From Candidatus Omnitrophota bacterium (GTDB lineage Bacteria > Omnitrophota > Omnitrophia > Omnitrophales > Aquincolibacteriaceae): DNA of 64,000 bases. Below, one piece after another: positions 4,124-61,263 of the stretch. The position numbers were made by a program, and so were the translations under genes. The notes beneath the pieces are model-generated. The model did not search any database and was not told the origin of the DNA. It saw only the letters and a program-made list of their open reading frames with translations. Each line of letters begins with the position of its first letter. The first letter of the stretch is position 1. The stretch covers positions 4,168 to 68,167 of the forward strand of contig JACPXM010000020.1 in assembly GCA_016196545.1 (NCBI GenBank), read 5' to 3'.

Positions 4124-4170
4124 AACAAACCGGGGACAGGTTTGAATTTCAAGCCTGTCCCCGGTTTGTT
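4124..4170. terminator. bidirectional intrinsic terminator between convergent pyrE and the minus-strand secreted-protein gene
   Basis: 16-bp perfect stem acaaaccggggacagg / cctgtccccggtttgt with a 13-nt loop. A T-run follows the stem on the minus strand. Confidence 0.6.
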
Positions 4171-5249: not shown

Positions 5250-5807
5250 ATGATTGAGCTTGCAGACTCTCCTAAGGTGGCGGCTTCCATGTTGGATGAA
5301 GACCATCGCAAATGGCATGAAGCCTATTGGTATGCCCTTTATACTCGAAGCCGTCACGAAAAATTTATCCGTGGAGAACTTGAGAAAAAGGGGATTGAAA
5401 CCTTTCTTCCCCTGAAGCGCGTCACACGCCGGTGGTCCGACCGAAAAAAAGTTATCGAAGAACCCCTTTTTAAGGGATATTTATTCGTCCATACGCCTCT
5501 TATAAACCGAATTTCTATTTTAAATACCAAGGGAGCCGTCCGATTTGTAGGGCCCTCGGTTTCTCCCCTTCAGGTTTCCGAAACAGAACTTGCCTCAATC
5601 CGCCATTTTATGGAAAACGAGCTCCCCATGGACCCTTTCCCTTACCTTAAGGAGGGAGAGCGCGTTTACATTCGCTCCGGACCCATGAAGGGCGTAGAAG
5701 GTTTTATTGTACGTAAAGATAAGCACTGCCGTCTGGTCATTTCACTCGACTTATTAATGCAGTCCGTATCGGTTTTGGTGGATCAAGCCATCGTCGAGAA
5801 GTTATGA
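5250..5807 (+). CDS. NusG-paralog transcription antiterminator (RfaH/UpxY-like) heading the polysaccharide locus
   Basis: NGN domain WYALYTRSRHEKFIRGELEKKGIETFLP...RRWSDR...PLFKGYLFVH. C-terminal KOW motif GERVYIRSGPMKGVEGFIV. Confidence 0.75.
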   Translation: MIELADSPKVAASMLDEDHRKWHEAYWYALYTRSRHEKFIRGELEKKGIETFLPLKRVTRRWSDRKKVIEEPLFKGYLFVHTPLINRISILNTKGAVRFVGPSVSPLQVSETELASIRHFMENELPMDPFPYLKEGERVYIRSGPMKGVEGFIVRKDKHCRLVISLDLLMQSVSVLVDQAIVEKL

Positions 5808-44273: not shown

Positions 44274-45420
44274 GCTTTGAAATGTCCTCTGCGATTTTAC
44301 GGTGGGGCGAAGGAAGGGGATAGAATTTAAGGCGGTCTGTGGAAATCCAACGAGAAGGACGCGAGCGAGAAGACTCGAGAAGGGGAAGGCCCATTTTCCT
44401 TGTCGTTTGCCTCATTGCCGTTGCCTCTTTTAATTCGAAGACCTCAAGTGAAATTCGGTATTTTGTAAATCCATGATGGACAGTCATGCGATGGGATAGC
44501 AGGGCCTGCCTTGCCCCGGCACTCGATTTTATGCGACGCATCATTTCATTTCTCGTTTTCCAAAACGGGAATATCCAAAGACCGCCCCAGCGCTCGTCAA
44601 GGGACTGCTTTTGAATTAAGACGTGGCCGTTCCTTCTTAAGATTAAGGCATAATTCCTGATTTTTTCAATAGTTTCTTTCCGTGCCTTCACCGGAAATTT
44701 TTCGGGGTTTCTCCCCTGAAATCCCAGGCAATGGGATTTTAGGGGGCAGGCCGGGCAGCGGGGAGCGTCGGGAAGACAAACCGTTGCCCCCAATTCCATC
44801 AGGGCCTGATTAAAATCACCGGGGTGGAAATCTTTAGACAGAAAGGGATTACGATTGGCCCCGACAAGCGTTGATGCGATGCCCCATAATTTTTTTTGAC
44901 CTTCCGTGGAATCTGCCGGCGTCTTGATTGCGAAAAACCTTGTGAGGACTCGAATCACATTCCCATCCAGCACTGGCACCCTTTCTCGGAACGCAATACT
45001 TGCAATGGCCCCTGCTGTGTAGCGGCCGATACCGGGAAGTGTCATCAACTCGGAGGCCGTTTCAGGGAAACGCTTATTTATAGCAAGCCTTTTTGCAGTT
45101 TCGTGAAGCATTCTGACGCGGCGGTAATAGCCAAGACCCGTCCACAATTTCATTACTTCCTGGAGAGATGTTCGCGCCAAAGATGTAAGGGAGGGAAACC
45201 GCGCAATCCAACGTTTGTAATAGGGGATCACGGTTTTGACCTGTGTTTGTTGCAGCATAATTTCTGAGATCCAAATCTTGTAGGGATCTTTCGTCTGCCT
45301 CCACGGTAAATCCCTCGCCCTCAGCCGATACCATTTAAGAAGGCGATTTCGAAACAACGGATGCGAATGCATGAAATGAAAGTACTGAATTCCGCCTTCA
45401 AAATCAAGGATTAAAACCAA
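44263..45420 (-). CDS. mutY: A/G-specific adenine DNA glycosylase
   Basis: LLKWYRLRARDLPWRQTKDPYKIWISEIMLQQTQVKTVIPYYKRWIARFP plus a C-terminal NUDIX-like domain. True start is probably the internal ATG near 45372. Confidence 0.85.
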   Translation of the reverse strand: MVLILDFEGGIQYFHFMHSHPLFRNRLLKWYRLRARDLPWRQTKDPYKIWISEIMLQQTQVKTVIPYYKRWIARFPSLTSLARTSLQEVMKLWTGLGYYRRVRMLHETAKRLAINKRFPETASELMTLPGIGRYTAGAIASIAFRERVPVLDGNVIRVLTRFFAIKTPADSTEGQKKLWGIASTLVGANRNPFLSKDFHPGDFNQALMELGATVCLPDAPRCPACPLKSHCLGFQGRNPEKFPVKARKETIEKIRNYALILRRNGHVLIQKQSLDERWGGLWIFPFWKTRNEMMRRIKSSAGARQALLSHRMTVHHGFTKYRISLEVFELKEATAMRQTTRKMGLPLLESSRSRPSRWISTDRLKFYPLPSPHRKIAEDISKHDS

Positions 45421-45460
45421 CTAGTGTTTGTACATTTTTCATGATTGAGGGCGAAGGAAT

Positions 45461-45570
45461 CCGCTACCTCCCCCCACCCGGTGTTTAAAAGCTTTTTCAC
45501 ACCGAGTGGGGGGAGGGTTGCCGGGAGAATGACAATTGCACGAACTGGTAGACACCCCCTGGTACTTTTT
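45461..45570. repeat. composite GC-rich repeat: a 50-nt near-perfect palindrome (45467-45516) fused to a 45-nt module shared with 48520-48576
   Basis: cctccccccacccggtgt...acaccgagtggggggagg, with 1 mismatch in 18 bp. Then gttgccgggagaatgacaattgcacgaactggtagacacccc. Confidence 0.55.
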
Positions 45571-45594
45571 GGGTGCTGCTGCGAGGACTGAGAG

Positions 45595-46716
45595 GTGTAT
45601 AATCGAGCCGTGGCGAAACGGACCTTAGATCAAATATTGGCCGAACACACGCGTGAAGGCGAGCTTTACGAAAAGCTGCCGGATGGGAGAATCCGCTGCT
45701 TCGCCTGCGGCCACCGCTGTCCGATCCCGGAAGGCCGGGCCGGTGTTTGTAAAATCCGTTTTAATCAAGGTGGAATTTTGCATGTCCCCTGGGGTTATGT
45801 CGGCGGCCTTCAAGATGATCCCGTCGAAAAGAAACCCTTTTTCCATGCCATGCCCGGGGTGCGTGCGCTCAGCTTCGGGATGCTGGGATGCGACTTTCAT
45901 TGCAGCTATTGCCAAAACTGGATTACAAGTCAGGCCCTTCGAGATCCCGAGGCCGTTTCCCCGCCGGTTGAAATTTCCCCCAAAGAACTAGTAAATTTAG
46001 CGATCGAAAGGCAATGTCAATTGGTCACGAGTACTTATAATGAGCCTTTGATTACAAGTGAATGGGGCATTGAAATTTTTAAAGAAGCGAAACACCGCGG
46101 CCTTGTGACGTCCTATGTCTCAAACGGAAATGGAACGTCGGAAGTCCTTGATTATATTCAACCTTGGGTGGATCTCTATAAAGTGGATCTAAAAAGTTTC
46201 GAAGACAGTCACTATCGGGAGCTTGGCGGCGCTCTAAAAAATGTTTGCGAGACAATCCGCGGGCTTTACGAGCGCAAAATCTGGCTGGAAGTCTTAACGC
46301 TCTTAATTCCGGGATTCAATAATTCTGATGAGGAACTTACCCGCCTTGCGGAATTTCTCGTTTCGGTTTCGCCCGATATCCCCTGGCATGTAACGGCCTT
46401 CCATAAAGATTACAAAATGATGCACTCTGAAAACACACAACCGGAACATCTTCTCCGCGCTGCAGAGATCGGAAAAAAAGCGGGGATTCGTTACCTCTAT
46501 CTCGGCAATCTCCCCGGCCAGGTGGGAGGATGGGAAAATACAATTTGTCCGGAATGCGGAGAAATCCTAGTCCGGCGATTTGGTTTTAAAGTTCTCTCCG
46601 ATTTCCTTACGAAATCCGAAGGTTATTGTCCTAAATGCCGATACAAAATCCCAGGGTTTTGGAAGAAACCAACGGTTCACCGGAGTTCAGAAGGTTATGT
46701 GCAACCTCTCCTGTAA
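45595..46716 (+). CDS. radical SAM enzyme (AmmeMemoRadiSam-system / PflA-like type)
   Basis: N-terminal CFACGHRC...C zinc-ribbon-like Cys cluster, then the CDFHCSYCQN CX3CX2C motif. Confidence 0.7.
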   Translation: MYNRAVAKRTLDQILAEHTREGELYEKLPDGRIRCFACGHRCPIPEGRAGVCKIRFNQGGILHVPWGYVGGLQDDPVEKKPFFHAMPGVRALSFGMLGCDFHCSYCQNWITSQALRDPEAVSPPVEISPKELVNLAIERQCQLVTSTYNEPLITSEWGIEIFKEAKHRGLVTSYVSNGNGTSEVLDYIQPWVDLYKVDLKSFEDSHYRELGGALKNVCETIRGLYERKIWLEVLTLLIPGFNNSDEELTRLAEFLVSVSPDIPWHVTAFHKDYKMMHSENTQPEHLLRAAEIGKKAGIRYLYLGNLPGQVGGWENTICPECGEILVRRFGFKVLSDFLTKSEGYCPKCRYKIPGFWKKPTVHRSSEGYVQPLL

Positions 46717-47446
46717 GAAAAAAGGCGAAAAGCAAAAATTTCCCCTACGAGGTTTCCGCATTGCAGGGAACCTGGTGCTCGTGGGGTTATTTTCCCTTTC
46801 GTCTTTTGCTGCAGAAGATTCCTCCTCGAATTGGTATTCAGAAAAAGACAATGTGACGGCGGATGAAAAACTTTATTTAGAAAAGGCGAGCCAAGAATTT
46901 GTAATCGTGGAGGAGCATTTGGCGGAACTTCGAAGACAGAAGACGTTTAGGCAATTGGAGAATCAAAATACCCTCCAAGAAATCGAAAAAGAGAAAAGTT
47001 TCGCGGAGGGCCGGCTTAAAATTCTAAAATCGGCATCAGAGGCGGAACGCGCCCATGCGCAACAGGAATTTGAAAAATCACTTTCGCACTTTAATCAAGG
47101 GATGGAAAAAACCTCTAAAAATATGCTCTCGGAAGATCATTATTTTCTCTGGCAGCTTCGTTCCCAAATGCGCGACCGGGAATATCAAGAAAAGCAAATT
47201 CATAAAATTAAGCCCGACCCGAGTTGGGGAAATAAGGAAAAGCTCGATCAAAAATTGAAGGCCGCCATCGGTAAAAGAAAGACCTTGGATGAGAAAATTA
47301 AGGCCTATGAGAAATCCAAAGGAAAGGCACGCGACGAGGCCCGTCAAGCCCTTGAAGAGGAAATGAAATCTCTAAATAAGGAATATAAGGAAATCCTTTC
47401 AAGGTCCAAACGCAGCCAGGGGCCGGTGATTAAAACGATCCAATAA
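46697..47446 (+). CDS. secreted or membrane-anchored coiled-coil protein
   Basis: Hydrophobic N-terminus GNLVLVGLFSLSSFAAE, then a low-complexity E/K/Q-rich heptad-like sequence. Confidence 0.4.
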   Translation: MCNLSCKKKGEKQKFPLRGFRIAGNLVLVGLFSLSSFAAEDSSSNWYSEKDNVTADEKLYLEKASQEFVIVEEHLAELRRQKTFRQLENQNTLQEIEKEKSFAEGRLKILKSASEAERAHAQQEFEKSLSHFNQGMEKTSKNMLSEDHYFLWQLRSQMRDREYQEKQIHKIKPDPSWGNKEKLDQKLKAAIGKRKTLDEKIKAYEKSKGKARDEARQALEEEMKSLNKEYKEILSRSKRSQGPVIKTIQ

Positions 47447-47487
47447 GTTAATTTCAGATTTTATTAAGATATCCTTTGCCAACGTTA

Positions 47488-47506
47488 TTCCCCCCCCTCC
47501 CCACCC
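47488..47506. repeat. poly-C tract C8TC4AC3 (G-quadruplex motif on the minus strand)
   Basis: ttcccccccctccccaccc. Related to the left arm of the 45467 palindrome. Confidence 0.45.
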
Positions 47507-47637
47507 ATTCTCCTAAAGCAACCCAGTCAAATAGGAATGAATTGTAACTTTTGATTGTTTTATTATGTCATAACTTGTTTATTTTTAAATGGTTATAGCT
47601 ATTGCAATGAAATCTTAATGTGGTAATTTTCCCTATA

Positions 47638-47654
47638 GGGGGGGGGTTGGGGCC
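47638..47654. repeat. poly-G tract G9TTG4 immediately upstream of the GAF gene RBS
   Basis: gggggggggttgggg. It is a mirror partner of the poly-C tract 130 bp upstream. Confidence 0.45.
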
Positions 47655-47673
47655 TTTAGCAGAAAGGAGTCCG

Positions 47674-48519
47674 ATGCAAATCGAGCAAAGGGGGCCGTAT
47701 CTGAGTTTTCAATGGATAGTTCCCCTCACTATTCTTCTTCTAAGTTTTACCCTCTGGGACGCCGCTTTGAAATCCTATCCCGCGATTTGCGGGGGATCTT
47801 TCGGTTGTCTTTATTTAGGTTTCGGTTTTTTGTTGTCTGGCGCGGTCGGATTTTGGATTCGTACTCGCGAATATCAGGAGAAGGTTCTGAAAGATGCTTT
47901 TCAGGAAAAAAGAAAACAACTGTCTGAGAAATTGAGAGACATGAATCATTCTGACCGTGCCACCTCCTTTCTTTATCAATGCTGTCAAGAGCTTCACACC
48001 TCCATTCATTTGGAGGAACTTCTTTCCCGCGTGATGGCACTGATTCATAAAGGGCTTCACGCGGACGAGGGTTCGGTGATGCTGCTTAACGAAAATAATA
48101 TGCTTTCCATCGCAGCCAGTTCCGGAATTCCGGAAGAAATCGCTCGTACGGTAAGGCTCAAACTTGGAGAACGCGTGGCGGGGAGGGCAGCACTGCTGCG
48201 CAAGGAATTTCTGCTGATTGAAGGGCTCGAGCATTACCCTGAATTCCGGGATATTCAAACAAATCCAAGAATCCGCTCTTCTATTGTGTGTCCCATGATT
48301 GCCAACTGCGAGCTTATCGGAGTCCTTACGTTGAATAGGACGCAAAACACAAAAAATTTTACAGTCACGGATTTAATGCATACTTCCGTGATAGCCTCCG
48401 AAATCGCCCAGGCCATCCAAAATACCAGGCTTCATGCAGTTCTTCAGAATAAAAACGAAGAGCTCGAAGCCGCCAGCCGCATGATTTTGGAGCTTAAAGA
48501 AAAAATCGGCGAAGTTTAA
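47674..48519 (+). CDS. membrane-anchored GAF-domain protein
   Basis: Two N-terminal TM segments, then a GAF-like core ...HADEGSVMLLNENNMLSIAASSG...GERVAGRAAL... The ATG at 47674 has a perfect aaaggag RBS. Confidence 0.55.
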   Translation: MQIEQRGPYLSFQWIVPLTILLLSFTLWDAALKSYPAICGGSFGCLYLGFGFLLSGAVGFWIRTREYQEKVLKDAFQEKRKQLSEKLRDMNHSDRATSFLYQCCQELHTSIHLEELLSRVMALIHKGLHADEGSVMLLNENNMLSIAASSGIPEEIARTVRLKLGERVAGRAALLRKEFLLIEGLEHYPEFRDIQTNPRIRSSIVCPMIANCELIGVLTLNRTQNTKNFTVTDLMHTSVIASEIAQAIQNTRLHAVLQNKNEELEAASRMILELKEKIGEV

Positions 48520-48576
48520 CCGTTTAGAGGGCACCTACCAGTTCATGCAATTGTCATTCTCCCGGCTACCTCCCCC
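48520..48576. repeat. inverted copy of the 45517-45560 repeat module
   Basis: Its reverse complement, gggggaggtagccgggagaatgacaattgcatgaactggtaggtgccc, is about 90% identical to 45509-45555. Confidence 0.55.
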
Positions 48577-48632
48577 TTGACAAATCGGTTAGAATACTCA
48601 GAAAATTGCCGATACCTTGGATACCTTGAATC

Positions 48633-49391
48633 ATGATTGACGTCAAAGATCTCACCATGCATTACGGCGGATTCGTTGCCCTAACAGGGGTTTCTTTCCA
48701 AGCCCGGGAAAAAGAAATTCTCGGACTTTTAGGGCCAAACGGCGCAGGCAAAACCACAGCCATGCGCATTTTAACCACTTACCTTTATCCCACGTCGGGC
48801 ACCGCGAAAGTCGACGGCCACGATATCTTGGAACATCCCGAGGAAGTCAGAAAGCGAATTGGATATCTTCCGGAAACGGCCCCTCTTTATCCGGATATGC
48901 AAGTCGAAGAATACCTTCAATTTGTGGGAAGCGCCCGGGGGCTGTCAAAGTCTGCCTTAATCGCAAGGCTTCGATGGGTTCGAGAGGCCTGCGGCTTGGA
49001 GGCGGTCTGGAAACATACTGTGAATGAACTCTCAAAAGGCTATCGACAAAGAACCGGACTTGCGCAGGCCTTGATCCATGATCCTAAAGTCCTCATTCTT
49101 GATGAACCCACCTCCGGACTTGATCCGCTTCAAATTATCGGAATCCGCGATTTGATCAAACAATTGGCCAAGGAAAAAACCATTATCTTTTCCACCCACA
49201 TCTTGCAGGAAGTGGAGGCCGTGGCCGACCGCGTCGTCATTATTAATGAAGGAAAAATCGTTGCGCAGGGCACACAAAAGGAATTGGCGGAAGAAGTGAG
49301 GACGCGCGGCCATCAGAAATCGGACCTGAATTTAGAAGACATTTTCATTTCGCTTTTAATGCCGAAAAAGAGGGAAAAACAGTCGGTATGA
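48633..49391 (+). CDS. ABC transporter ATP-binding protein (GldA-like)
   Basis: Walker A GPNGAGKTT, signature LSKGYRQR and Walker B LILDEPTSGLD. Confidence 0.85.
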   Translation: MIDVKDLTMHYGGFVALTGVSFQAREKEILGLLGPNGAGKTTAMRILTTYLYPTSGTAKVDGHDILEHPEEVRKRIGYLPETAPLYPDMQVEEYLQFVGSARGLSKSALIARLRWVREACGLEAVWKHTVNELSKGYRQRTGLAQALIHDPKVLILDEPTSGLDPLQIIGIRDLIKQLAKEKTIIFSTHILQEVEAVADRVVIINEGKIVAQGTQKELAEEVRTRGHQKSDLNLEDIFISLLMPKKREKQSV

Positions 49392-51913
49392 AGAGTTTGT
49401 CGAATATCCTTACCGTCTTCCGGCGTGAACTGAGCGCTTATTTTAACGCGGCCATTGCTTATATTTTCATCATCGTCTTTGTGCTTTTAAACGGCGGTCT
49501 TTTCATGACGCAATTTTTTGTGATTGACCGCGCGGACATGCGCCCCTTTTTCGGCACGCTCCCCTTTATCCTTTCTGTTTTTCTGCCCGCCGTTACGATG
49601 CGTCTTTGGGCGGAGGAAAAAAGAGGGAATACTCTGGAACTCCTTTTGACTTTTCCGATGGCTACCCATGAACTTGTCCTCGGAAAATTTCTGGCAAGTT
49701 TACTGTTCTATTTTACTGCGCTGGCCGGAACGTTCACGATCCCGGTCATGCTTTCCGTGATCAGCCGCCCCGATTTGGGGGTTGTCTTTGGAGGTTATTT
49801 AGGAGCAGCCCTTTTGGGGGCATTTTATCTTGCTATCGGAATTTTTATTTCGGGGCTTTGCCGCGATCAAATCGTTTCCTTCATTCTTTCCATGATGATT
49901 TGTTTCGGTCTCTTTTTGGTGGGAACGGAATTTTTGTCTTCTTCCATTGACGGCTGGATTCCCGGGCTCGGCTCCTTTTTCAGCCAATTTCTCGGCACCT
50001 CTTCTCATTTCGATTCCTTTGCCAAAGGCGTCATCGATGGCGGGGATCTCCTTTATTTTGTGATTGGGTCTTTGATCTTTCTTGTTTTAAACGGTTTTTG
50101 GTTGGAGGGCCGCATGAGGCCGCGTGCAAAGAGTATCTTTGCTACGGCCACGCTCATTTGCGCCGGGATTTTTCTTACTACCAACTGGCTTTTTGCCGGG
50201 GTTTCCATCGGTCGCTTTGATTTGACGGAAGGGAAAATCTATACGATTGCCCCCGCGACAAAAAAAATCCTTCGCGAGCTCAAGGCTCCTGTGACGGCCA
50301 AATTTTATGTTTCTCCAGTCGATAAAATGCCGACGGGAATGAAGACGATCGAACAGGATGTCCTGGACAAACTGGATGAGTTTAAAGTAGCCTCGGGCGG
50401 AAATTTTAACTACAAAATTTTTCGAATGGAAGCAGCGAACGTCGTGGAGGGAACGGGAAAGGCCGGCGAAGAATCCCTGGAAGAGCAGCTGCAAAAAAAA
50501 GGGATTCAACCCTTTCAGGTGCGGGCCATTGTTTCCGATGAAGTGGCGGTTCGTTTGATTTATTCCTCGATTAGCGTTGCCTACAAAGAAAAACCCGAGG
50601 AAATCATTGCGCGCGTTTATCCGGACAATTTGGATGAGCTGGAATACATGTTGGCTTCAAAGATTTACCGAATGACCTTATCCAGCATTCCAAAAATCGC
50701 GCTCGTGGCACCTTATGAAGAAAAAAGCGTGGAGCCGGAGGTGCAGGCCCTTCTCGCACAGCTCGGCGGCCAGGCCCCGGAGGCTTATCGCGAAGATAAC
50801 TATGAACTTCTTCCCCTGGCACTGGAATATGAAGGCTATGAAGTTTCGCGCATTCAACTCAATGAAAAAGAGTCCCTTCCCGAGGACGTCAAGACCGTTG
50901 TGATCGTAGAGCCTCGGGAACTCAATGAGCGCCAAAAATATGAGATCAGCCGATTCTTGAGCCGCGGCGGATCGGTCTTTCTCGCGGTTCAGAACTACGA
51001 ATATCAATACGCGCCCAGCGGCCGGGATCTTTCCATTTTCCCGAAAGAAAAAAAACCAGAGGTTAATCCCTTGCTTGAAAATTGGGGCCTGGAAGTGGAC
51101 GAACAAATTCTTGTGGACGAACAAAGCGATGTCATTAATTTAAGCGGGGCGGCCCGCCTGGGGCCCTTCGAGGTCTCGGTACCGGTCAAAGTCCCGATCC
51201 AGATTCTTATCACACAGGAACAAATGAATTCCCAAATTTCCGTGACTTCGAATCTCGCCTCTTTGTTTTATCTCTGGGGAACGGCGATCAAACCCAATGA
51301 AGAAAAAATAAAAGATCAGAAACTTAAAGTGGATACACTTTTTAGCTCAAGCCGCCAGTCCTGGACAGTGCCGTTTCAGTCCGGCTCCCTTCAACCCGCG
51401 CATTTAGAATATAAAGCCGAGAGCAGCCGAAAAGGGCCTTTCCCGCTTGCGGTCTATGTCCAGGGGATTTTTGCCGACGCTTACAAGGACAAGGCCGTTC
51501 CCGAATGGCCGAAAACAGAGCCTGCTGCCAGTGCTGAAGAAACCAAAGAAGAGGCCAAAAAAGAAGAGCTAAAATCGGAAGCGGTTCTGTCGCCTGCGCC
51601 GGGAAAGCTGATCGTGGTAGGTGCGGCCACGCTTTTTCAAAAACATCTCGTAAAGGGGGGAGGCAATCTTCAGTTATTTATGAATTCCGTGGATATCTTG
51701 AGCCTTGGAGAGGAGCTTGTCACGATTCGCTCCAAGCGCCCCATTGACCGCTCCGTCGGACGCGTTCCCTCCGCGGCCAAGATGGGTTGGAGATTTTTTG
51801 TCACGGTCTTAATTCCTGTGATCCTTGCGGTGCTGGGGGCCCTTCGCTTATTTCTGAGGCGCCAGACCAAAAGTCTTTATTTAAAATCCCTTCAAATCAG
51901 CTCTGTCTCATGA
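49388..51913 (+). CDS. fused ABC-2 permease (GldF-like) plus GldG-like auxiliary domain
   Basis: Six-TM ABC-2 N-terminal half, a large extracytoplasmic domain and a C-terminal TM anchor. Length 841 aa. ATGA coupling with the ATPase gene. Confidence 0.65.
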   Translation: MKSLSNILTVFRRELSAYFNAAIAYIFIIVFVLLNGGLFMTQFFVIDRADMRPFFGTLPFILSVFLPAVTMRLWAEEKRGNTLELLLTFPMATHELVLGKFLASLLFYFTALAGTFTIPVMLSVISRPDLGVVFGGYLGAALLGAFYLAIGIFISGLCRDQIVSFILSMMICFGLFLVGTEFLSSSIDGWIPGLGSFFSQFLGTSSHFDSFAKGVIDGGDLLYFVIGSLIFLVLNGFWLEGRMRPRAKSIFATATLICAGIFLTTNWLFAGVSIGRFDLTEGKIYTIAPATKKILRELKAPVTAKFYVSPVDKMPTGMKTIEQDVLDKLDEFKVASGGNFNYKIFRMEAANVVEGTGKAGEESLEEQLQKKGIQPFQVRAIVSDEVAVRLIYSSISVAYKEKPEEIIARVYPDNLDELEYMLASKIYRMTLSSIPKIALVAPYEEKSVEPEVQALLAQLGGQAPEAYREDNYELLPLALEYEGYEVSRIQLNEKESLPEDVKTVVIVEPRELNERQKYEISRFLSRGGSVFLAVQNYEYQYAPSGRDLSIFPKEKKPEVNPLLENWGLEVDEQILVDEQSDVINLSGAARLGPFEVSVPVKVPIQILITQEQMNSQISVTSNLASLFYLWGTAIKPNEEKIKDQKLKVDTLFSSSRQSWTVPFQSGSLQPAHLEYKAESSRKGPFPLAVYVQGIFADAYKDKAVPEWPKTEPAASAEETKEEAKKEELKSEAVLSPAPGKLIVVGAATLFQKHLVKGGGNLQLFMNSVDILSLGEELVTIRSKRPIDRSVGRVPSAAKMGWRFFVTVLIPVILAVLGALRLFLRRQTKSLYLKSLQISSVS

Positions 51914-53301
51914 AGCCGAAACAAATTATTTTTCTCGCCATTCTTTTCGGTGTTTTGGTGATTGCCGTGACCGTGAAAAATTTCCAGAAGCCCGCCGAGC
52001 TTGCAACCCAGGAATTTACCCCGTTGGACCTGTCGTTGAACGTGGATGAAATTGAAAAAATTGAAATTACAAAGCCTAAGAGCGGGGATGTGGAAAAGGA
52101 AGAATATGTGGAACTTCATAAAATGAAGGGCGAGTGGCGGGTTAAAAGCCTTTACGATGCCCGTGCAGAGGAGGACAAGGTGAAGGCCCTTTTGGAGGAG
52201 ATAAAAAATGCCAAAGGAGAGCTTCGGGCCCGCGACAAGGAATTGCATGCAGATTTCAAGATTAAGGAAGAAGAGGCCCTTGGGATCAAACTTTCCACAA
52301 GTTCGGGTGCGACGGCCCTTCATTTATTGGTGGGCATGCGCAAATCCGGTCAGATGATTTTTATCCGAAAAAGCGGGGAAGACACAGTCTATCTTACAGA
52401 AGCGGACCTTATGGGACAGGTGGGCCTTTTTGGGGATACGGATAGAGAAGGCCTCTCCAGTGACTTCTGGGCTTCCATGGTGCTTGCCGAGCCCGATCCT
52501 GAAAAAGTAGATAAATTTGAAATTCACCGGCTTGAAGGCGGGGACTTCATTTCAGCGAGCCTTGAAAAGGCGCCGGACCCTGCGGACGCCTCACGAAAGA
52601 TCTGGCAATTTTCACGTCCCCTTCAAAATCCGTTCAAGGCGGACCCGGAAAAGGTGAAGCTTTATCTTGAGAATATCAAAACATGGCGTGCCCAAAAGGT
52701 GCTGGACCCTCAGGCGAAGGATTACGGATTCTCAAAACCCCAATGGAAATTGATCATAACTCAAGAAGGCGGCCAAACCCTTGAGATTACGGCCCCAGCT
52801 CCGGATGAAACAACAAAGTCTTATCCGATGAAGGTCACCGATAAACCCGTGATTTTTCAATTGATTCATTATTATTTTGAAAATTTGGACGCCGATGACA
52901 GCCGTTTTTATACCGATGAAAATCTTTTGGGAATTGAAAATGAAAAGATCGTAAAACTCGTGATTTATGCCGGCAAAAAGGAAATGAAATTTAATCCGAA
53001 AGAAAGAACTTGGGACGCTTTAACGAATTATATGAATTCTCTGAAAAGCGATTTTCATATCAAACGTCTCCTCTTTCATCCTTCCGATCAGAAGAAAGTG
53101 CGGGCCAACGCAAGTACGTGGATAGAAATTCAAAAAGAAGGGGAAGCTTCTAAGTTTATCGATCTGGGTGATAAGATTTCTCCGGATTCACCGGAATACG
53201 CCGCCCAACTCCGGGGCACCGGTATACCGTTTGCGATCGAGGAATCGCTTTTTAAGAAATTGGTTGAAAATCTCGACCCGCTCGCCGAACCGAAGCCGTA
53301 A
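51910..53301 (+). CDS. DUF4340-like periplasmic protein with an N-terminal anchor
   Basis: Single N-terminal TM KQIIFLAILFGVLVIAV. ATGA overlap with the GldG-like gene, a gene order that often accompanies GldG. Confidence 0.45.
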   Translation: MKPKQIIFLAILFGVLVIAVTVKNFQKPAELATQEFTPLDLSLNVDEIEKIEITKPKSGDVEKEEYVELHKMKGEWRVKSLYDARAEEDKVKALLEEIKNAKGELRARDKELHADFKIKEEEALGIKLSTSSGATALHLLVGMRKSGQMIFIRKSGEDTVYLTEADLMGQVGLFGDTDREGLSSDFWASMVLAEPDPEKVDKFEIHRLEGGDFISASLEKAPDPADASRKIWQFSRPLQNPFKADPEKVKLYLENIKTWRAQKVLDPQAKDYGFSKPQWKLIITQEGGQTLEITAPAPDETTKSYPMKVTDKPVIFQLIHYYFENLDADDSRFYTDENLLGIENEKIVKLVIYAGKKEMKFNPKERTWDALTNYMNSLKSDFHIKRLLFHPSDQKKVRANASTWIEIQKEGEASKFIDLGDKISPDSPEYAAQLRGTGIPFAIEESLFKKLVENLDPLAEPKP

Positions 53302-54086: not shown

Positions 54087-54137
54087 CGGCCAAGATTCGC
54101 TTCGTCATTGCGCGTCATTGCCGGTACAATACCTCTT

Positions 54138-55403
54138 ATGAATTCACAAAAAAAATCATTCCTGATCATTGGCGGTGGGATTGTGGGGCTTGCCACAGCG
54201 CGCGAAATTTTGCTTCGTAACCCTGAAGCGAAAGTTACGGTTCTAGAAAAGGAATCACAAATTGCCCTGCATCAAAGTGGCCACAATAGCGGTGTTATTC
54301 ATTCCGGAATTTATTACAAGCCCGGCACCGAAAAGGCCAAGACTTGTCGCGAGGGGATTCGTCTCCTTCATGAATTCTGTGAGGAAAAAGGAATTGTGCG
54401 CCGGCGTGTGGGGAAATTAATTATCGCAATCTCGGAAGAAGAAAGACAGCGGCTTGGTCCGCTGAAGGAGCAAGGCCTTGCAAACGGGATTAAAGATATT
54501 AAGCAAGTCCGTCAAGACGAAATCAAAGGTTATGAACCTTCCGTTTCAGGAATTGAAGGAATCTATCTTCCGGAAGTCGCGCTTGTAGATTTTAAGGAGG
54601 TCAGTGAGGCGCTCAAGGCGGATATTGAAGCGCATGGCGGGGAAGTGGTCGTGCATCGTAAGGTGACGAAAATTGTGAGATTGCGAGATCGGACCCCTTT
54701 ACCTTTATCCTCTCCCCCTTTAAGGGGGGGAGGGCAGGGTGAGGGAGAAATTATTGTTCTTGCCGACAATTGCGAATACAAAGCCTCTTTCCTCATTAAT
54801 TGCGCGGGTCTTTACAGCGATAAAATTGCAAGGCTTTCCGGGCTTTACCCAAGAGTCCGAATCGTTCCCTTTCGCGGCGAATATTTCTGGCTCAATCCGG
54901 AAAAAGCAAAACTTATCCGAGGGCTTGTCTACGGGGTTCCCGATCCACGGCTTCCATTTTTAGGCATGCATTTAACTCCGACCTTGGAGGGACGCGTCAA
55001 AGTGGGACCCAATGCCGTCCTTGCCCTCGCGCGCGAAGGCTATTTTTCAAATCAAATCAACGCCCAAGAGACATTTGAACTTGTGGCTTCACCCGTCTTT
55101 TGGCGAATGGCATTACGTTATTGGAAAACAGGAATTTCTGAAGTGATTCATTCCCGGATGATGAATTTTTATCTGGCCACGCTTCGGAAATTTCTCCCCA
55201 CGGCGGAAATTTCAGATTTAACGCCGGGTCCTACGGGCGTGCGTGCGCAGGCCGTCGATGAAAAGGGCCAGCTCGTAAGTGATTTTTATTTTATGGAAGA
55301 GTCCGACGCCTGCCATGTCTTGAATGCCCCGTCTCCGGCTGCCACTGCTGCCCTCGCCATTGCCAAGCGCGTCGTGGATCAAATCAAGATGCAGGATTTT
55401 TAA
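54138..55403 (+). CDS. FAD-dependent oxidoreductase, L-2-hydroxyglutarate oxidase (LhgO)-like
   Basis: FAD motif SFLIIGGGIVGLATA. HNSGVIHSGIYY is typical of LhgO-like enzymes. Confidence 0.65.
   Translation: MNSQKKSFLIIGGGIVGLATAREILLRNPEAKVTVLEKESQIALHQSGHNSGVIHSGIYYKPGTEKAKTCREGIRLLHEFCEEKGIVRRRVGKLIIAISEEERQRLGPLKEQGLANGIKDIKQVRQDEIKGYEPSVSGIEGIYLPEVALVDFKEVSEALKADIEAHGGEVVVHRKVTKIVRLRDRTPLPLSSPPLRGGGQGEGEIIVLADNCEYKASFLINCAGLYSDKIARLSGLYPRVRIVPFRGEYFWLNPEKAKLIRGLVYGVPDPRLPFLGMHLTPTLEGRVKVGPNAVLALAREGYFSNQINAQETFELVASPVFWRMALRYWKTGISEVIHSRMMNFYLATLRKFLPTAEISDLTPGPTGVRAQAVDEKGQLVSDFYFMEESDACHVLNAPSPAATAALAIAKRVVDQIKMQDF
54694..54747. repeat. GC-rich palindromic element inserted in-frame in the LhgO-like gene
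   Basis: cccctttacctttatcctctccccctttaagggggggagggcagggtgagggag encodes RTPLPLSSPPLRGGGQGEGE. It shares the module ccctcaccc..ccctc with the acnA element. Confidence 0.5.
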
Positions 55404-58461: not shown

Positions 58462-61263
58462 ATGAGCGGCAAGCATTTATTGAAGATTAAGGGGAAAGAT
58501 TATCACTTCTTTCGATTAGAGGTCTCTAGGAAACTTCCCTATTCCATCCGGATTCTGCTGGAGAATTTACTGCGGCATGAAGATGGAAAAGCGGTGCGGC
58601 GGGAAGATATTGAGGCGCTTGCAGCGTGGGATTCTAAACAGACATCGAATAAGGAAATTGCCTTTATCCCTGGCCGGGTGATTCTTCAGGATTTTACGGG
58701 GGTTCCCTGTGTTGTTGATCTGGCTGCGATGCGCGACAAAATCCGTGAAATGCGGGGCGACGCCAAAAAGATCAATCCGCTTGAGCCCGTGGATTTGGTG
58801 ATCGACCATTCCGTGCAAGTCGATGCCTTCGGCTCTCCGGAAGCCTTCCGTAAAAATGTGGAGCTTGAATTCCAAAGAAATAAAGAACGCTACCAATTCC
58901 TTCGCTGGGGCCAGCAGGCCTTTAGAAATTTCCGCGTGGTGCCGCCGGGAACGGGGATCGTTCATCAAGTAAATCTCGAATATCTTGCCGGTGTCATTCT
59001 CACCAAAAAAGTTGGAAACGAAACACTTCTTTATCCGGACACGCTGGTTGGAACGGATTCTCATACCACGATGATTAATGGCCTGGGCGTTCTGGGTTGG
59101 GGGGTGGGCGGCATTGAGGCCGAGGCTGCAATGCTCGGCCAGCCCATTTCCATGTTGATTCCCGAAGTCGTGGGATTTCGCTTCACCGGAAAACTACAAG
59201 AGGGTGCCACGGCAACGGATCTTGTATTGACGGTTACTGAAATGCTCCGCAAAAAAGGTGTGGTTGGAAAATTCGTGGAATTTTTTGGTCCCGGGCTGGA
59301 TCATTTGACGCTCGCCGATCGCGCGACGATTGCCAATATGGCTCCCGAATACGGGGCAACCACGGGCTATTTTCCCGTGGATGTTGAAACTATGAACTAT
59401 CTTAGATTAAGCGACCGGCAGGCAGAACACGTCGAATTAGCAGAGGCTTATTTTAAAGAACAAGGGCTTTTCCGTACTCCAAATTCTCCTGAGCCCGTTT
59501 TCTCCGACACGCTTGAATTAAACCTTTCCCAAATTGAAGCCAGTCTTGCCGGTCCCAAAAGACCCCAAGATCGAGTCGCCCTGAAAAAGGTAAAACAAAA
59601 TTTCCAAGAAACTTTAAAAACAATCATAAAAGGAAAACCGTTGCCTGAAACGGACCCGAGGCGCGTCAATCATTGGCAGGCGGAAGGCGGAAGCACGAAG
59701 CCCTTAGCTGCCCAATTGCAAAAGGAGCCGTTGGAAATTTCTGAGCCGGTTGAAATCCGGACTGAAGATCAATCTTTCAAAATCAATCATGGCTCTGTGG
59801 TGATTGCTGCCATTACAAGCTGCACGAACACATCCAATCCCGCGGTGATGATGGGCGCGGGGCTTCTTGCGAAAAAGGCAGTGGAACGTGGTCTCAACGC
59901 CAAACCTTGGGTGAAAACTTCGCTGGCCCCGGGTTCCAAAGTCGTGATGGATTATTTGGAAAAGACGGGGCTTAAGACCTATCTTGAGAAATTAAATTTT
60001 CATTTGGTAGGCTACGGATGCACCACGTGTATCGGAAATTCGGGGCCGCTTCTCGAGGAAATCGGTGCTGCGGTCAAAGAAAATGATTTATATGTTGCGG
60101 CCGTACTTTCGGGCAACCGCAATTTTGAAGGACGTGTGAACCCTTTGGTGCGCGCCAATTACCTGGCCTCACCTCCGCTTGTTGTGGCCTACGCGCTCGC
60201 GGGGACCGTCGAAAAAGACCTCACCACGGAACCGCTTGGCCAAGATTCCAAGGGAAATCCTGTTTATCTCAAAGACATTTGGCCCACACAAAAGGAAATT
60301 GAAAACGCGATGCGCGAGGTCGATGCCGCCATGTTTCGAAGACAATATGAAAATGTCTTTGACGGTGAAGAGGCCTGGCGCATCATGAAAGTTCCGACCG
60401 GCGACAATTTTCAATGGGATGAAAAATCCACCTACATCAAAAAACCCCCCTATTTTGAGGGGATGCCCCAAGCGCCTTCCGCTCTTCAGGATATTAAAAA
60501 TGCGCGCGTGCTTGTCAGGGTGGGTGATTCCGTCACAACGGATCATATTTCACCCGCAGGCTCCATTGCCAAAGACAGTCCGGCCGCAAAATATTTAATG
60601 GAGCAAGGTGTTTTGCCCAAAGATTTTAATTCTTACGGGGCCCGCCGGGGAAATCACGAAGTCATGATGCGAGGGACTTTCGCGAATACTCGACTCAAAA
60701 ATGAATTGGCCCCAGGTACGGAGGGCGGCTGGACTCGGTATTTTAATTCGCCCTCACCCCAACCCTCTCCCTCAGGGGGAAAGTTGGGTGAGGGGAATAT
60801 CTCGGTTTATGACGCGGCAGTGGAATATCAAAAACAGGCAACGCCGCTTCTTGTCATTGCGGGAAAGGAATACGGCTCAGGATCCTCCCGTGATTGGGCG
60901 GCCAAAGGCCCCGCGCTGCTTGGCGTCAAGGCCGTGATCGCGGAGAGTTTTGAACGCATTCACCGCTCGAATCTCATTGGAATGGGGATTCTTCCGCTTG
61001 AATTTGAACAAGGTCAAACGCGAAAATCATTGGGATTAACCGGGGAGGAGATTTTTTCCATCGAAGGAATTGCAAAGGATCTTGTACCCGGAAAAAAATT
61101 AGCCGTAGGGGCGCGCCCGGAACCGGGCGGGGAAAATCCCACCCCTCCATCAAAACAATTTTTCGTCAAATGCCGGATTGACACCCCGGTGGAACTTGAA
61201 TATTATCGCCACGGCGGTATCTTACAGTACGTATTAAGACAATTAATAGCAGAAAACAAATAA
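58462..61263 (+). CDS. acnA: aconitate hydratase A
   Basis: Length 933 aa. Fe-S ligand region [10 protein letters not shown] and a C-terminal [17 protein letters not shown]...[21 protein letters not shown] almost identical to E. coli AcnA (from memory). Confidence 0.9.
60749..60796. repeat. GC-rich palindromic element inserted in-frame in acnA
   Basis: cgccctcaccccaaccctctccctcagggggaaagttgggtgagggg encodes [16 protein letters not shown]. The segment is absent from the corresponding E. coli AcnA stretch GGMTRHLPDSDVVSIYDAAM. Confidence 0.6.

Follow-up and report, generated by a model that had tools for sequence, protein, structure and literature searches.

A 50-nt palindrome lies in the spacer between the divergent mutY and radical SAM genes of a Candidatus Omnitrophica MAG, and a sequence module beside it recurs 3 kb away in opposite orientation, upstream of a gldA-like ABC operon. 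Such an arrangement raises the question of whether the repeats are regulatory sequences, products of a local rearrangement, or remnants of a mobile element. Omnitrophota are a phylum known almost only from MAGs. We therefore examined both repeats in the window, which is the whole 64-kb stretch of DNA that was analysed, and compared them with contigs of relatives.

The palindrome and the repeated module

The original prediction held that a palindrome at 45467-45516 is followed by a module present twice in opposite orientation, and both proved real. The palindrome arms (45467-45491 and 45492-45516, 25 nt each, spacer 0) were 88% complementary, and 45461-45520 formed a stable hairpin as single-stranded DNA at -21.3 kcal/mol on the + strand and -23.1 kcal/mol on the - strand (z-scores -6.7 and -7.4, equally good folds in 0/200 shuffles). 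The module was a 51-nt inverted repeat, 45510-45560 (+) against 48526-48576 (-), with 84% complementarity. Its 32-nt core, GCCGGGAGAATGACAATTGCAYGAACTGGTAG, occurred exactly twice, at 45520-45551 (+) and 48535-48566 (-); the two copies were identical at 31/32 positions, the flanks were less conserved, and none would be expected by chance (a match in 0/100 shuffles, 3 mismatches tolerated). No third copy was found within the 64-kb window by blastn (word size 7) or nhmmer. The fragment ctacctccccc, said to be common to both loci, was recovered within a 12-nt identity between 45463-45474 and 48565-48576, and the 11-mer match alone was not significant (at least 2 hits in 17/100 shuffles).

Both copies lie where they had been placed. 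Copy 1 occupies the spacer between MutY (- strand, ORF end 45420, probable ATG 45372) and an AmmeMemoRadiSam radical SAM gene starting at 45595 or 45610 (product of 368 aa in the NCBI annotation, P0121), and copy 2 follows the GAF-gene stop at 48519 and precedes the ABC ATPase start at 48633. Coordinates of all features are given in Table 1.

Table 1. Parts of the two repeat copies and the adjoining promoter regions, in window coordinates.
Feature	Position	Strand	Description
Decayed left terminal arm of the copy-1 foldback	45416..45437	+	CCAACTAGTGTTTGTACATTTT; pairs with 45527-45549 in the single-stranded DNA fold
Left subterminal segment	45427..45462	+	TTTGTACATTTTTCATGATTGAGGGCGAAGGAATCC; degenerate REP-like half with a TGTC tag; its homologue is the left half of the L034 element
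Central 50-nt palindrome	45467..45516	.	C-rich and G-rich arms, AAAAGCTTTT centre; core hairpin of the copy-1 foldback
Module copy 1, right arm of the foldback	45510..45560	+	Terminal repeat 45533-45557 (CAATTGCACGAACTGGTAGACACCC); subterminal motif GAGAATGACA
Radical SAM promoter context	45596..45612	+	Conserved TGTATAAT -10-like box and GTG start (45610)
Module copy 2, solo arm	48526..48576	-	Terminal repeat 48529-48553; inner end 48565-48576 (GCTACCTCCCCC) identical to 45463-45474
gldA-like promoter and leader	48577..48632	+	TTGACAAATCGGTTAGAATA...ATTGCCGATA; conserved in comparison with L037, abuts copy 2

Palindrome and module had been treated as two units, which was not borne out, as a left arm that had been overlooked pairs with the right arm. 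In the single-stranded DNA fold of 45405-45565 (MFE -28.5 kcal/mol, z -3.4), 45416-45437 paired with 45527-45549, and 0/200 shuffles folded equally well. Moreover, 45427-45456 was identical at 25/30 positions to the segment TTTATACAGTTGTCAT-TCTGAGGGCGAAG of the relative L034, with a score of 33 that was reached by 0/1000 shuffles (maximum 26). The palindrome forms the centre, the module the right arm and 45416-45462 the decayed left arm of one ~150-nt foldback, and copy 1 is this foldback, entire but decayed (~45408-45557). mutY and the radical SAM gene have their core promoters back to back, and copy 1 is wedged between these. The TGTATAAT box just upstream of the radical SAM start was conserved in L034 and L042, and the box region is the ancestral promoter, directly right of the insertion. 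The mutY/radical-SAM spacer was ~237 nt in the window versus 49 nt in L033, 85 nt in L034 and 64 nt in L038; these three relatives with short, empty spacers are all distant (70-77% protein identity; 77% for the radical SAM protein of L034).

Copy 2 is a truncation remnant consisting of one arm, immediately ahead of the gldA-like ABC operon promoter. It ends at 48576, exactly where the sequence becomes homologous to the gldA promoter of L037 (the GldA-like ATPases of L037 and the window are 87% identical), and a promoter-like site (TTGACA-18-GAAAAT) was called just outside it. In relatives, tRNA-Ala or tRNA-Pro is located upstream of gldA. Copy 2 was also considered as a tRNA remnant, which was rejected because ARAGORN found no tRNA in the window.

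The isolated module was unstructured, both strands of both copies being less folded than shuffles (z +0.5 to +1.8). An ATG within it opens an ORF of 20 codons (MTIARTG...) in copy 1 and of 4 codons (MTIA*) in copy 2; with such different lengths the ORF is not conserved, and a small-peptide reading of the module was rejected.

Related foldbacks with the same termini

The outer 25 nt of the module (consensus CAAyTGyAtNAAsTGG-N6-CCC) formed both termini of complete foldbacks in two related Omnitrophica-like contigs, L034 and L035. An HMM of the two window copies alone matched L034 at 2193-2229 (E ~0.01-0.02 in 313 kb, 27/37 ungapped identity), and this match was one terminus of a 119-nt foldback of which the opposite terminus matched too. 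The L034 element, located between an M48 peptidase and a hydrolase, has inverted repeats at 2193-2215/2289-2311 (78%) and TTGTCATTCTGAG/CTCAGGATGACAA (92%), folds end to end (z -4.2) and is accompanied by a perfect 14-nt direct repeat, GCACCCGAACGCAT, at 2179-2192 and 2306-2319. Because 6 nt of the direct repeat fall within the right terminal repeat, the direct repeat may be read as 8 or 14 nt long, the 8-bp form being GAACGCAT. With an HMM of window and L034, two inverted matches were obtained in L035 (E ~0.007 each), which were the two ends of a 256-nt nested hairpin (z -15) between a histidine kinase and a toxin-antitoxin pair; no direct repeat was seen flanking the L035 element.

The pattern AYTGYAYNAASTGGNNNNNNCCC, with up to 2 substitutions, matched only six termini in ~230 kb, all in the window, L034 and L035, and had no match in a further 62 kb of relatives. 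The count was two copies in the 64-kb window and a single element in each of L034 and L035; ~150 kb from other relatives contained none. The single cross-genome E-values are modest because the matches are short, and the cross-genome case, drawn from sequence comparison, rests on short matches coinciding with predicted foldback termini. The exact 18-mer core was absent from 185,579 species-representative genomes and the JGI metagenome collection, neither of which includes the source MAG; the 11 hits in genome contigs and 15 in metagenome contigs were all chance (26 in total, no extension past the seed). The family, if it exists, is narrow or fast-evolving. A literature search found no published record of the repeat sequence itself.

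Taken together, we presume, with reasonable confidence, that the window holds two remnants of one lineage-specific non-coding foldback repeat family, MITE-like and carrying TGTC/CGTC-tagged REP-type hairpins. The window repeats are an ordinary kind of selfish DNA. A MITE/REP-like family had been proposed from the outset, and the proposal is supported by the recurrence of the 25-nt ends in the L034 and L035 foldbacks, the L034 direct repeats and the empty mutY/radical-SAM spacers. The argument for mobility from the occurrence in both orientations is weak, since copy 1 lies in a divergent region and has the same orientation to mutY as copy 2 has to the ABC ATPase. Target-site duplications, which were to be checked, were not visible in the window at either copy.

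Alternative explanations

The 32-nt core could instead be a cis-regulatory protein-binding site through which mutY or the radical SAM gene is regulated together with the gldA-like ABC operon, and the hairpin would then be incidental. Conserved core promoters lie immediately downstream of both copies, the module is oriented alike towards mutY and gldA, selection (or gene conversion) could account for a core identical at 31/32 positions within more divergent flanks, and a near-palindrome, ATGaCAATTGCAT, can be read inside the core. However, the same terminal sequence forms the paired ends of hairpin elements at unrelated sites in L034 and L035, the orthologous promoters of relatives are without the core, no DNA-binding regulator is encoded nearby, and the adjacent GAF protein has no DNA-binding domain. 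We consider a regulatory site unlikely. Among other candidate sites, a sigma-54-like reading of GGCAC...TGCA was rejected by eye, the spacing being wrong.

Without any mobile element, promoter-proximal DNA might have undergone a one-off local inverted duplication when X, GAF and the ABC operon came to lie behind the radical SAM gene. No more than two copies are visible, their distance is 3 kb, synteny is broken in this region, and by local alignment the similarity may reach from the module to the ATG regions (score 26, ~1-2% of shuffles). Anchored extension from the core was not significant, with 55/300 shuffles as good, an alignment in the opposite orientation was equally good around the self-complementary AATCATGATT, and the duplication would leave the homologous foldback termini in L034 and L035 unexplained; it is an improbable source of the repeats. 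Its more specific form, in which copy 1 is a duplicated gldA promoter and gene start, is unproven (local p ~0.01-0.02, anchored extension not significant).

Less probable still is a transcribed structured RNA, that is, an sRNA, a riboswitch-like leader or a terminator. The RNA hairpin would be very stable (MFE -57 kcal/mol for 146 nt, z -2.5), but no Rfam family reached its gathering score in the whole window, and in E-value mode Rfam gave only generic miRNA-hairpin noise (at most 25.8 bits versus gathering scores of 63-130). No T-run follows the stem on either strand, no terminator-like or promoter-like site was called in 45400-45600, the element is upstream of both conserved -10 boxes, and the module, as stated above, folds less well than shuffles whichever strand or copy is taken.

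Finally, the inverted copies could be terminal repeats bounding a mobile or invertible segment of 3.1 kb with the genes for the radical SAM, coiled-coil and GAF proteins, given that the 51-nt inverted repeat flanks 2965 nt with three genes and that relatives differ in the block that separates the radical SAM gene from the downstream hydrolase, but this is highly improbable and largely refuted already by the arm orientation: by comparison with the complete L034 and L035 elements, the outer ends (...CCC) point inward to the 3-kb block (right arm, block, left arm, opposite to the order in a bounded element), so the arms do not bound a cassette, while the mutY/radical-SAM junction, kept in L033, L034 and L038, is ancestral and the radical SAM gene is therefore not cargo, copy 1 has its own left arm, and no recombinase or invertase is encoded in or beside the block.

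Comparison with known repeat classes

Prokaryotic MITEs are described as elements of <500 bp with terminal inverted repeats, direct repeats fading with age and stable stem-loops (PMC10969869). We applied a size limit of <500-800 bp without coding capacity (PMC10969869), within which copy 1 (~150 nt), the L034 element (119 nt) and the L035 element (256 nt) all fall, with only short non-conserved ORFs. Terminal inverted repeats are paired in L034 and L035, the decayed left arm of copy 1 still pairs, and copy 2 consists of one arm; in the window and the fetched loci we found neither a cognate autonomous element nor a transposase bounded by the same ends. Similar to the Correia elements of Neisseria and QMITE2 of Coxiella, the foldbacks are small and non-coding, with ~25-nt terminal inverted repeats and a stem-loop spanning the whole element. 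They also share with prokaryotic MITEs the intergenic location beside promoters, the decayed or solo copies and, in the best-preserved relative, L034, a flanking direct repeat. The likeness to the named MITEs is one of architecture and not of compared sequence. Unlike Correia/QMITE2-type MITEs, the centre is G+C-rich rather than AT-rich, and no promoter or IHF site was predicted inside.

Previous work on CGTC/TGTC-tagged REPs described a terminal tag followed by a stem with A and T at its first two positions, a canonical unit with an 8-9-bp stem, a 4-5-nt loop and a CCA tail, and dimers whose two units fold together as a single large hairpin; these repeats 'apparently lack a dedicated transposase' (Di Nocera et al. 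2013, PMC3733652). We found the tag followed by an AT stem in the window (TTGTC-ATTCTCCC), L034 (TGTC-ATTCTGAG) and L035 (CGTC-ATTGCGA). The foldbacks thus resemble this class in the subterminal (T/C)GTC with an AT-starting stem (TGTCATTCT..., CGTCATTGCGA...), in opposite-orientation units able to form one large hairpin, and in having no adjacent transposase. A self-contained hairpin with an 8-9-bp stem was not found, as the window module is unstructured and the stems in L034 and L035 are longer and interrupted. In addition, they differ by the extra ~25-nt terminal repeat outside the tag and by the flanking direct repeat in L034.

GTAG REPs of REP/RAYT systems have a GTAG tag beside a 20-40-nt palindrome, and the RAYT gene is flanked by repeats. 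The window family shares with REP/REPIN-RAYT systems the palindromic intergenic repeats and the doublets that form long hairpins, and the module contains GGTAG. In contrast to these systems, the stretch after GTAG forms no hairpin, the window encodes no RAYT or Y1 transposase, and the Y1_Tnp-domain genes of relatives are without these flanking repeats. The module as a GTAG-type REP (GTAG plus hairpin) was rejected by folding.

Rickettsia palindromic elements (RPE) are intragenic and in frame, as are the G/C-rich hairpins of the window genome, whereas the foldback studied here is intergenic. Such in-frame hairpins are present in this genome within aconitase and an LhgO-like gene. The suggestion that the repeats form one family with the intragenic poly-C/poly-G hairpins found no support: the best matches to the hairpins at 54725 and 60771 were 10-12 nt (E of at least 14), and the 13-nt identity GGGGGGAGGGTTG to an intragenic-type hairpin in L034 had E ~2, so that the likeness amounts to 10-13-nt runs of G or C (E of at least 2-14).

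Proposed mechanism and implications

We suggest that a full element of the MITE-like family would have ~25-nt terminal inverted repeats with the outer end GGGyryn..CCAsTTnATrCArTTG, then a subterminal (T)GTCATTC... / ...GAATGAC(A) motif, a G+C-rich hairpin centre and a mirror-image arm. Such elements may be moved in trans by a transposase encoded elsewhere, which would recognise the terminal repeats and leave short duplications of the target (in the L034 copy, 8 bp). In the window and all fetched loci, no gene for a transposase was found close to a copy; Pfam scans of the 28 window ORFs gave no transposase and no recombinase, and tblastn with the Y1_Tnp proteins of relatives gave no match in the window. 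These Y1_Tnp (RAYT-like) genes were rejected as the source of the mobilising enzyme, having no window homologue and no flanking repeats. In the relatives they are located behind c-di-GMP riboswitches. Both window copies are probably immobile fossils, because neither has an intact pair of ends or a visible target duplication. An effect on the neighbouring promoters, through spacing or a cruciform in the divergently transcribed spacer, is conjecture.

The broad biological importance is small. The analysis documents an undescribed small foldback repeat family in Omnitrophota and accounts for the unusual palindrome between divergent promoters as selfish DNA, not regulatory RNA. It is conceivable, though we doubt it, that the L034, L035 and window elements show TGTC/CGTC-tagged REP dimers moving not by themselves but as the cargo of a foldback with a conserved ~25-nt terminal repeat at its ends and an 8-bp target duplication, the latter as expected of a DDE-type transposase. 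If true, this would give an old and widespread repeat class a testable transposition mechanism, and if terminal repeat plus target duplication turned out to be the common design of TGTC/CGTC-tagged repeats, this would be relevant to how that class spreads. Hairpins of this kind also mark rearrangement-prone spots; relatives differ in the gldA operon and in the region that follows the radical SAM gene. Such hairpins break assemblies and can cause spurious ORF calls. The contig of the relative L012 begins inside a different large hairpin.

Palindrome and inverted module

The original prediction described a 50-nt palindrome and a repeated module, and its positions, structure and shared fragment all stand. 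The palindrome between mutY and the radical SAM gene (copy 1) was recovered by repeat search, the module was found again in opposite orientation before the ABC ATPase gene (copy 2; 51 nt, 84%), and the 12-mer common to both sites lies in the left arm of the palindrome in copy 1 and at the inner end in copy 2. Folded as ssDNA, the palindrome reached -21 to -23 kcal/mol (z -6.7 and -7.4; 0/200 shuffles equal), and the module folded alone was unstructured. The 32-nt well-kept core of the module, GCCGGGAGAATGACAATTGCAYGAACTGGTAG, occurs exactly twice in the window, with none expected by chance, and neither blastn (word size 7) nor nhmmer detected a third module copy in the 64 kb.

Positions of the repeat elements and associated features (window positions unless a related locus is named)
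Feature	Position	Details
Palindrome	45467-45516	arms 25 nt, 88% complementary
Module, copy 1 (+)	45510-45560	
Module, copy 2 (-)	48526-48576	
Shared 12-mer GCTACCTCCCCC	45463-45474; 48565-48576	
Stretch left of palindrome, copy 1, TTTGTACATTTTTCATGATTGAGGGCGAAG	45427-45456	25/30 identity with L034 left half
Box TGTATAAT and radical SAM start	45596-45612	6 nt ahead of radical SAM GTG
TACTTT and probable mutY start	45372-45385	6 nt upstream of probable mutY ATG (45372)
Tandem duplication, 9 nt, GATACCTTG GATACCTTG	48611-48628	ABC ATPase gene leader
Radical SAM-hydrolase slot	46717-53300	
Aconitase hairpin cctcaccccaaccctctccctcagggggaaagttgggtgagg	60750-60800	in frame; ORF 58462-61263
LhgO-like FAD oxidoreductase hairpin ctccccctttaaggggggag...	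54700-54745	C/G-rich, in frame; ORF 54108-55403; codes for PLPLSSPPLRGGGQGEGE
C8-T-C4-A-C3	47488-47506	spacer before GAF gene
G9-TT-G4	47636-47655	spacer before GAF gene
Probable GAF gene start	ATG 47674	preceded by AAAGGAG
Near-perfect hairpin	4124-4170	arms 23 nt, 96%; between convergent genes
Insertion relative to L033	4700-43150	~38 kb
NusG paralogue	5250-5807	first gene of insertion
HMM match	L034 2193-2229	
Different large hairpin CGCCCACCGCGTAGGTGGCCTTTT ... AAAAGGCCACCTACGCGGTGGGCG	L012 1-120	contig starts within it, just before gldA
tRNA genes	L028 9807-9881; L031 9864-9937	Ala-CGC, Pro-TGG
c-di-GMP-I riboswitch	L028 14747-14824; L031 14814-14893	passes Rfam gathering score

A foldback family in related genomes

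An HMM built from nothing but the two window copies matched L034, a locus of a related Omnitrophica-like genome (E ~0.01-0.02, 27/37 ungapped identity). This match belongs to a foldback of 119 nt, GGGCGCCCGCCACtttatacagTTGTCATTCTGAGGGCGAAGCCCGAAGAATCTAAAACCAGATCCTTCGCTCCGCTCAGGATGACAAttttgggtactgtatcaaGTGGTAAGCACCC, which lies between genes for an M48 peptidase and a hydrolase. The foldback has module-like sequence at both ends, two inverted-repeat layers confirmed by repeat search, and the perfect direct repeat GCACCCGAACGCAT on each side; if GCACCC closes the right terminal repeat, the duplication would be 8 bp, GAACGCAT. The HMM from window and L034 sequences gave two inverted matches in another such locus, L035 (E ~0.007 each), which are both ends of a 256-nt nested hairpin (z -15). 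Alignment of the six termini from the window, L034 and L035 yielded the consensus CAAyTGyAtNAAsTGG-N6-CCC; with at most 2 substitutions allowed, this pattern was found nowhere beyond the six termini in ~230 kb of window and relatives, and was also missing from a further 62 kb of relatives. Inward of the terminal repeat, at variable spacing, stand (T/C)GTCATTC... and ...GAATGAC(A/G), the tag-plus-AT-stem signature of the CGTC/TGTC-tagged REPs, which often form dimers of opposite orientation folding as one large hairpin (Di Nocera et al., PMC3733652).

The elements constitute a family of foldback repeats whose terminal inverted repeats are conserved and whose intergenic sites differ from genome to genome; flanking direct repeats are present at one copy (L034), and relatives lack the element at the corresponding sites, for the mutY/radical SAM spacer in distant relatives (70-77% protein identity). 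The feature is real, and we consider it likely to be an ordinary one that adds a new member, from a little-studied phylum, to the MITE/REP-like class. The family would be moved in trans by a transposase encoded elsewhere, and the window copies are probably inactive remnants. No transposase was found near any copy, nor any target duplication in the window. It is improbable that the core is instead a protein-binding site shared by two promoters: its 31/32 identity between the copies, its place upstream of the promoters and its single orientation towards mutY and gldA alike would fit such a site, but it leaves unexplained why relatives carry these termini in pairs at unrelated positions. The idea that a single local duplication produced both copies draws on a similarity that seems to run on towards the start codons (borderline statistically, orientation ambiguous), but is weakened by the homologues across genomes. 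An RNA element has no support; Rfam gave no match at gathering score, with only generic hairpin noise below it, and no promoter-like or terminator-like sites were predicted within the element.

Structure and setting of the two copies

The L034 homology left of the palindrome was not reached by any of 1000 shuffles, and in the fold of 45405-45565 the segment 45416-45437 paired with 45527-45549 (z -3.4). Copy 1 therefore reads as a complete but worn foldback of ~150 nt, with a decayed left arm and the C/G-rich palindrome at its centre. Its right arm is well preserved and corresponds to the module of the original prediction. Copy 2 is a single arm. Comparison with the complete elements shows that both arms turn their outer (…CCC) ends towards the 3-kb block between them, so this block is not enclosed by an element; its left junction (MutY/radical SAM) is ancestral anyway. 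A composite or invertible 3-kb segment ending in the two arms is contradicted by the arm orientation, this ancestral junction and the lack of a recombinase.

In the window, which derives from a Candidatus Omnitrophica MAG, GcvT (-) and MutY (-) precede copy 1. The + strand genes between the copies encode the AmmeMemoRadiSam radical SAM enzyme, a coiled-coil protein that is secreted and lacks any family match, and a GAF protein; a GldA-like ABC ATPase, a GldF/GldG-like fusion, DUF4340 and a hydrolase follow copy 2. Database proteins matched the radical SAM enzyme at 77% identity and the ATPase at 87% at best, and no close relative was present. The divergent MutY/radical SAM arrangement is kept in L033, L034 and L038 with spacers of 49, 85 and 64 nt, respectively, against ~237 nt in the window, and the TGTATAAT box directly before the radical SAM start is common to the window, L034 and L042; these short spacers and the conserved box indicate ~150 nt of extra DNA between both core promoters in the window. 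At copy 2, L037 homology (an 87% relative) upstream of the ATPase gene begins at TTGACA, 48577, 1 base past the copy end.

The box-to-start distances suggest that the mutY and radical SAM transcripts may be leaderless or have very short leaders. Leaders are longer in L038 and L042, the former with a Shine-Dalgarno sequence. Relatives differ in what separates the radical SAM gene from the hydrolase: L033 and L042 have nothing in this slot, L034 and L038 each have an M48 peptidase, and the window has the coiled-coil and GAF proteins followed by the GldA/GldFG/DUF4340 operon.

Other palindromes and differences among relatives

The proposed kinship with intragenic poly-C/poly-G hairpins, those in the LhgO-like and aconitase genes, was not borne out, their likeness to the palindrome being only 10-13-nt runs (E >= 2). 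The aconitase hairpin adds ~13 residues that the L033 orthologue lacks and resembles RPE-like intragenic palindromic insertions. The two C- and G-runs before the GAF gene flank ~130 nt of AT-rich sequence, and the 4124-4170 hairpin is probably a bidirectional terminator.

TGTC-type repeats occur upstream of gldA in L028 and L037, and with the L012 hairpin (an 82% relative) this side of gldA seems to gather palindromic repeats in several lineages. The tRNA genes of L028 and L031, of different types, lie directly before the gldA-like operon; the 64-kb window has no tRNA. Downstream of that operon in both loci, the riboswitch directly precedes a gene for a 404-411-aa protein with N-terminal Y1_Tnp (IS200-like) and a long C-terminal extension, which may be a domesticated HUH-transposase domain controlled by c-di-GMP. 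The L033 backbone reads CobA-GDPD-SpoU-PRTase-unknown, then GcvT-MutY-rSAM, and in the window insertion the NusG paralogue is followed by a long polysaccharide-biosynthesis cluster, all on one strand, with glycosyltransferases, a carbamoyltransferase, an ABC exporter and a Bac_transf protein.
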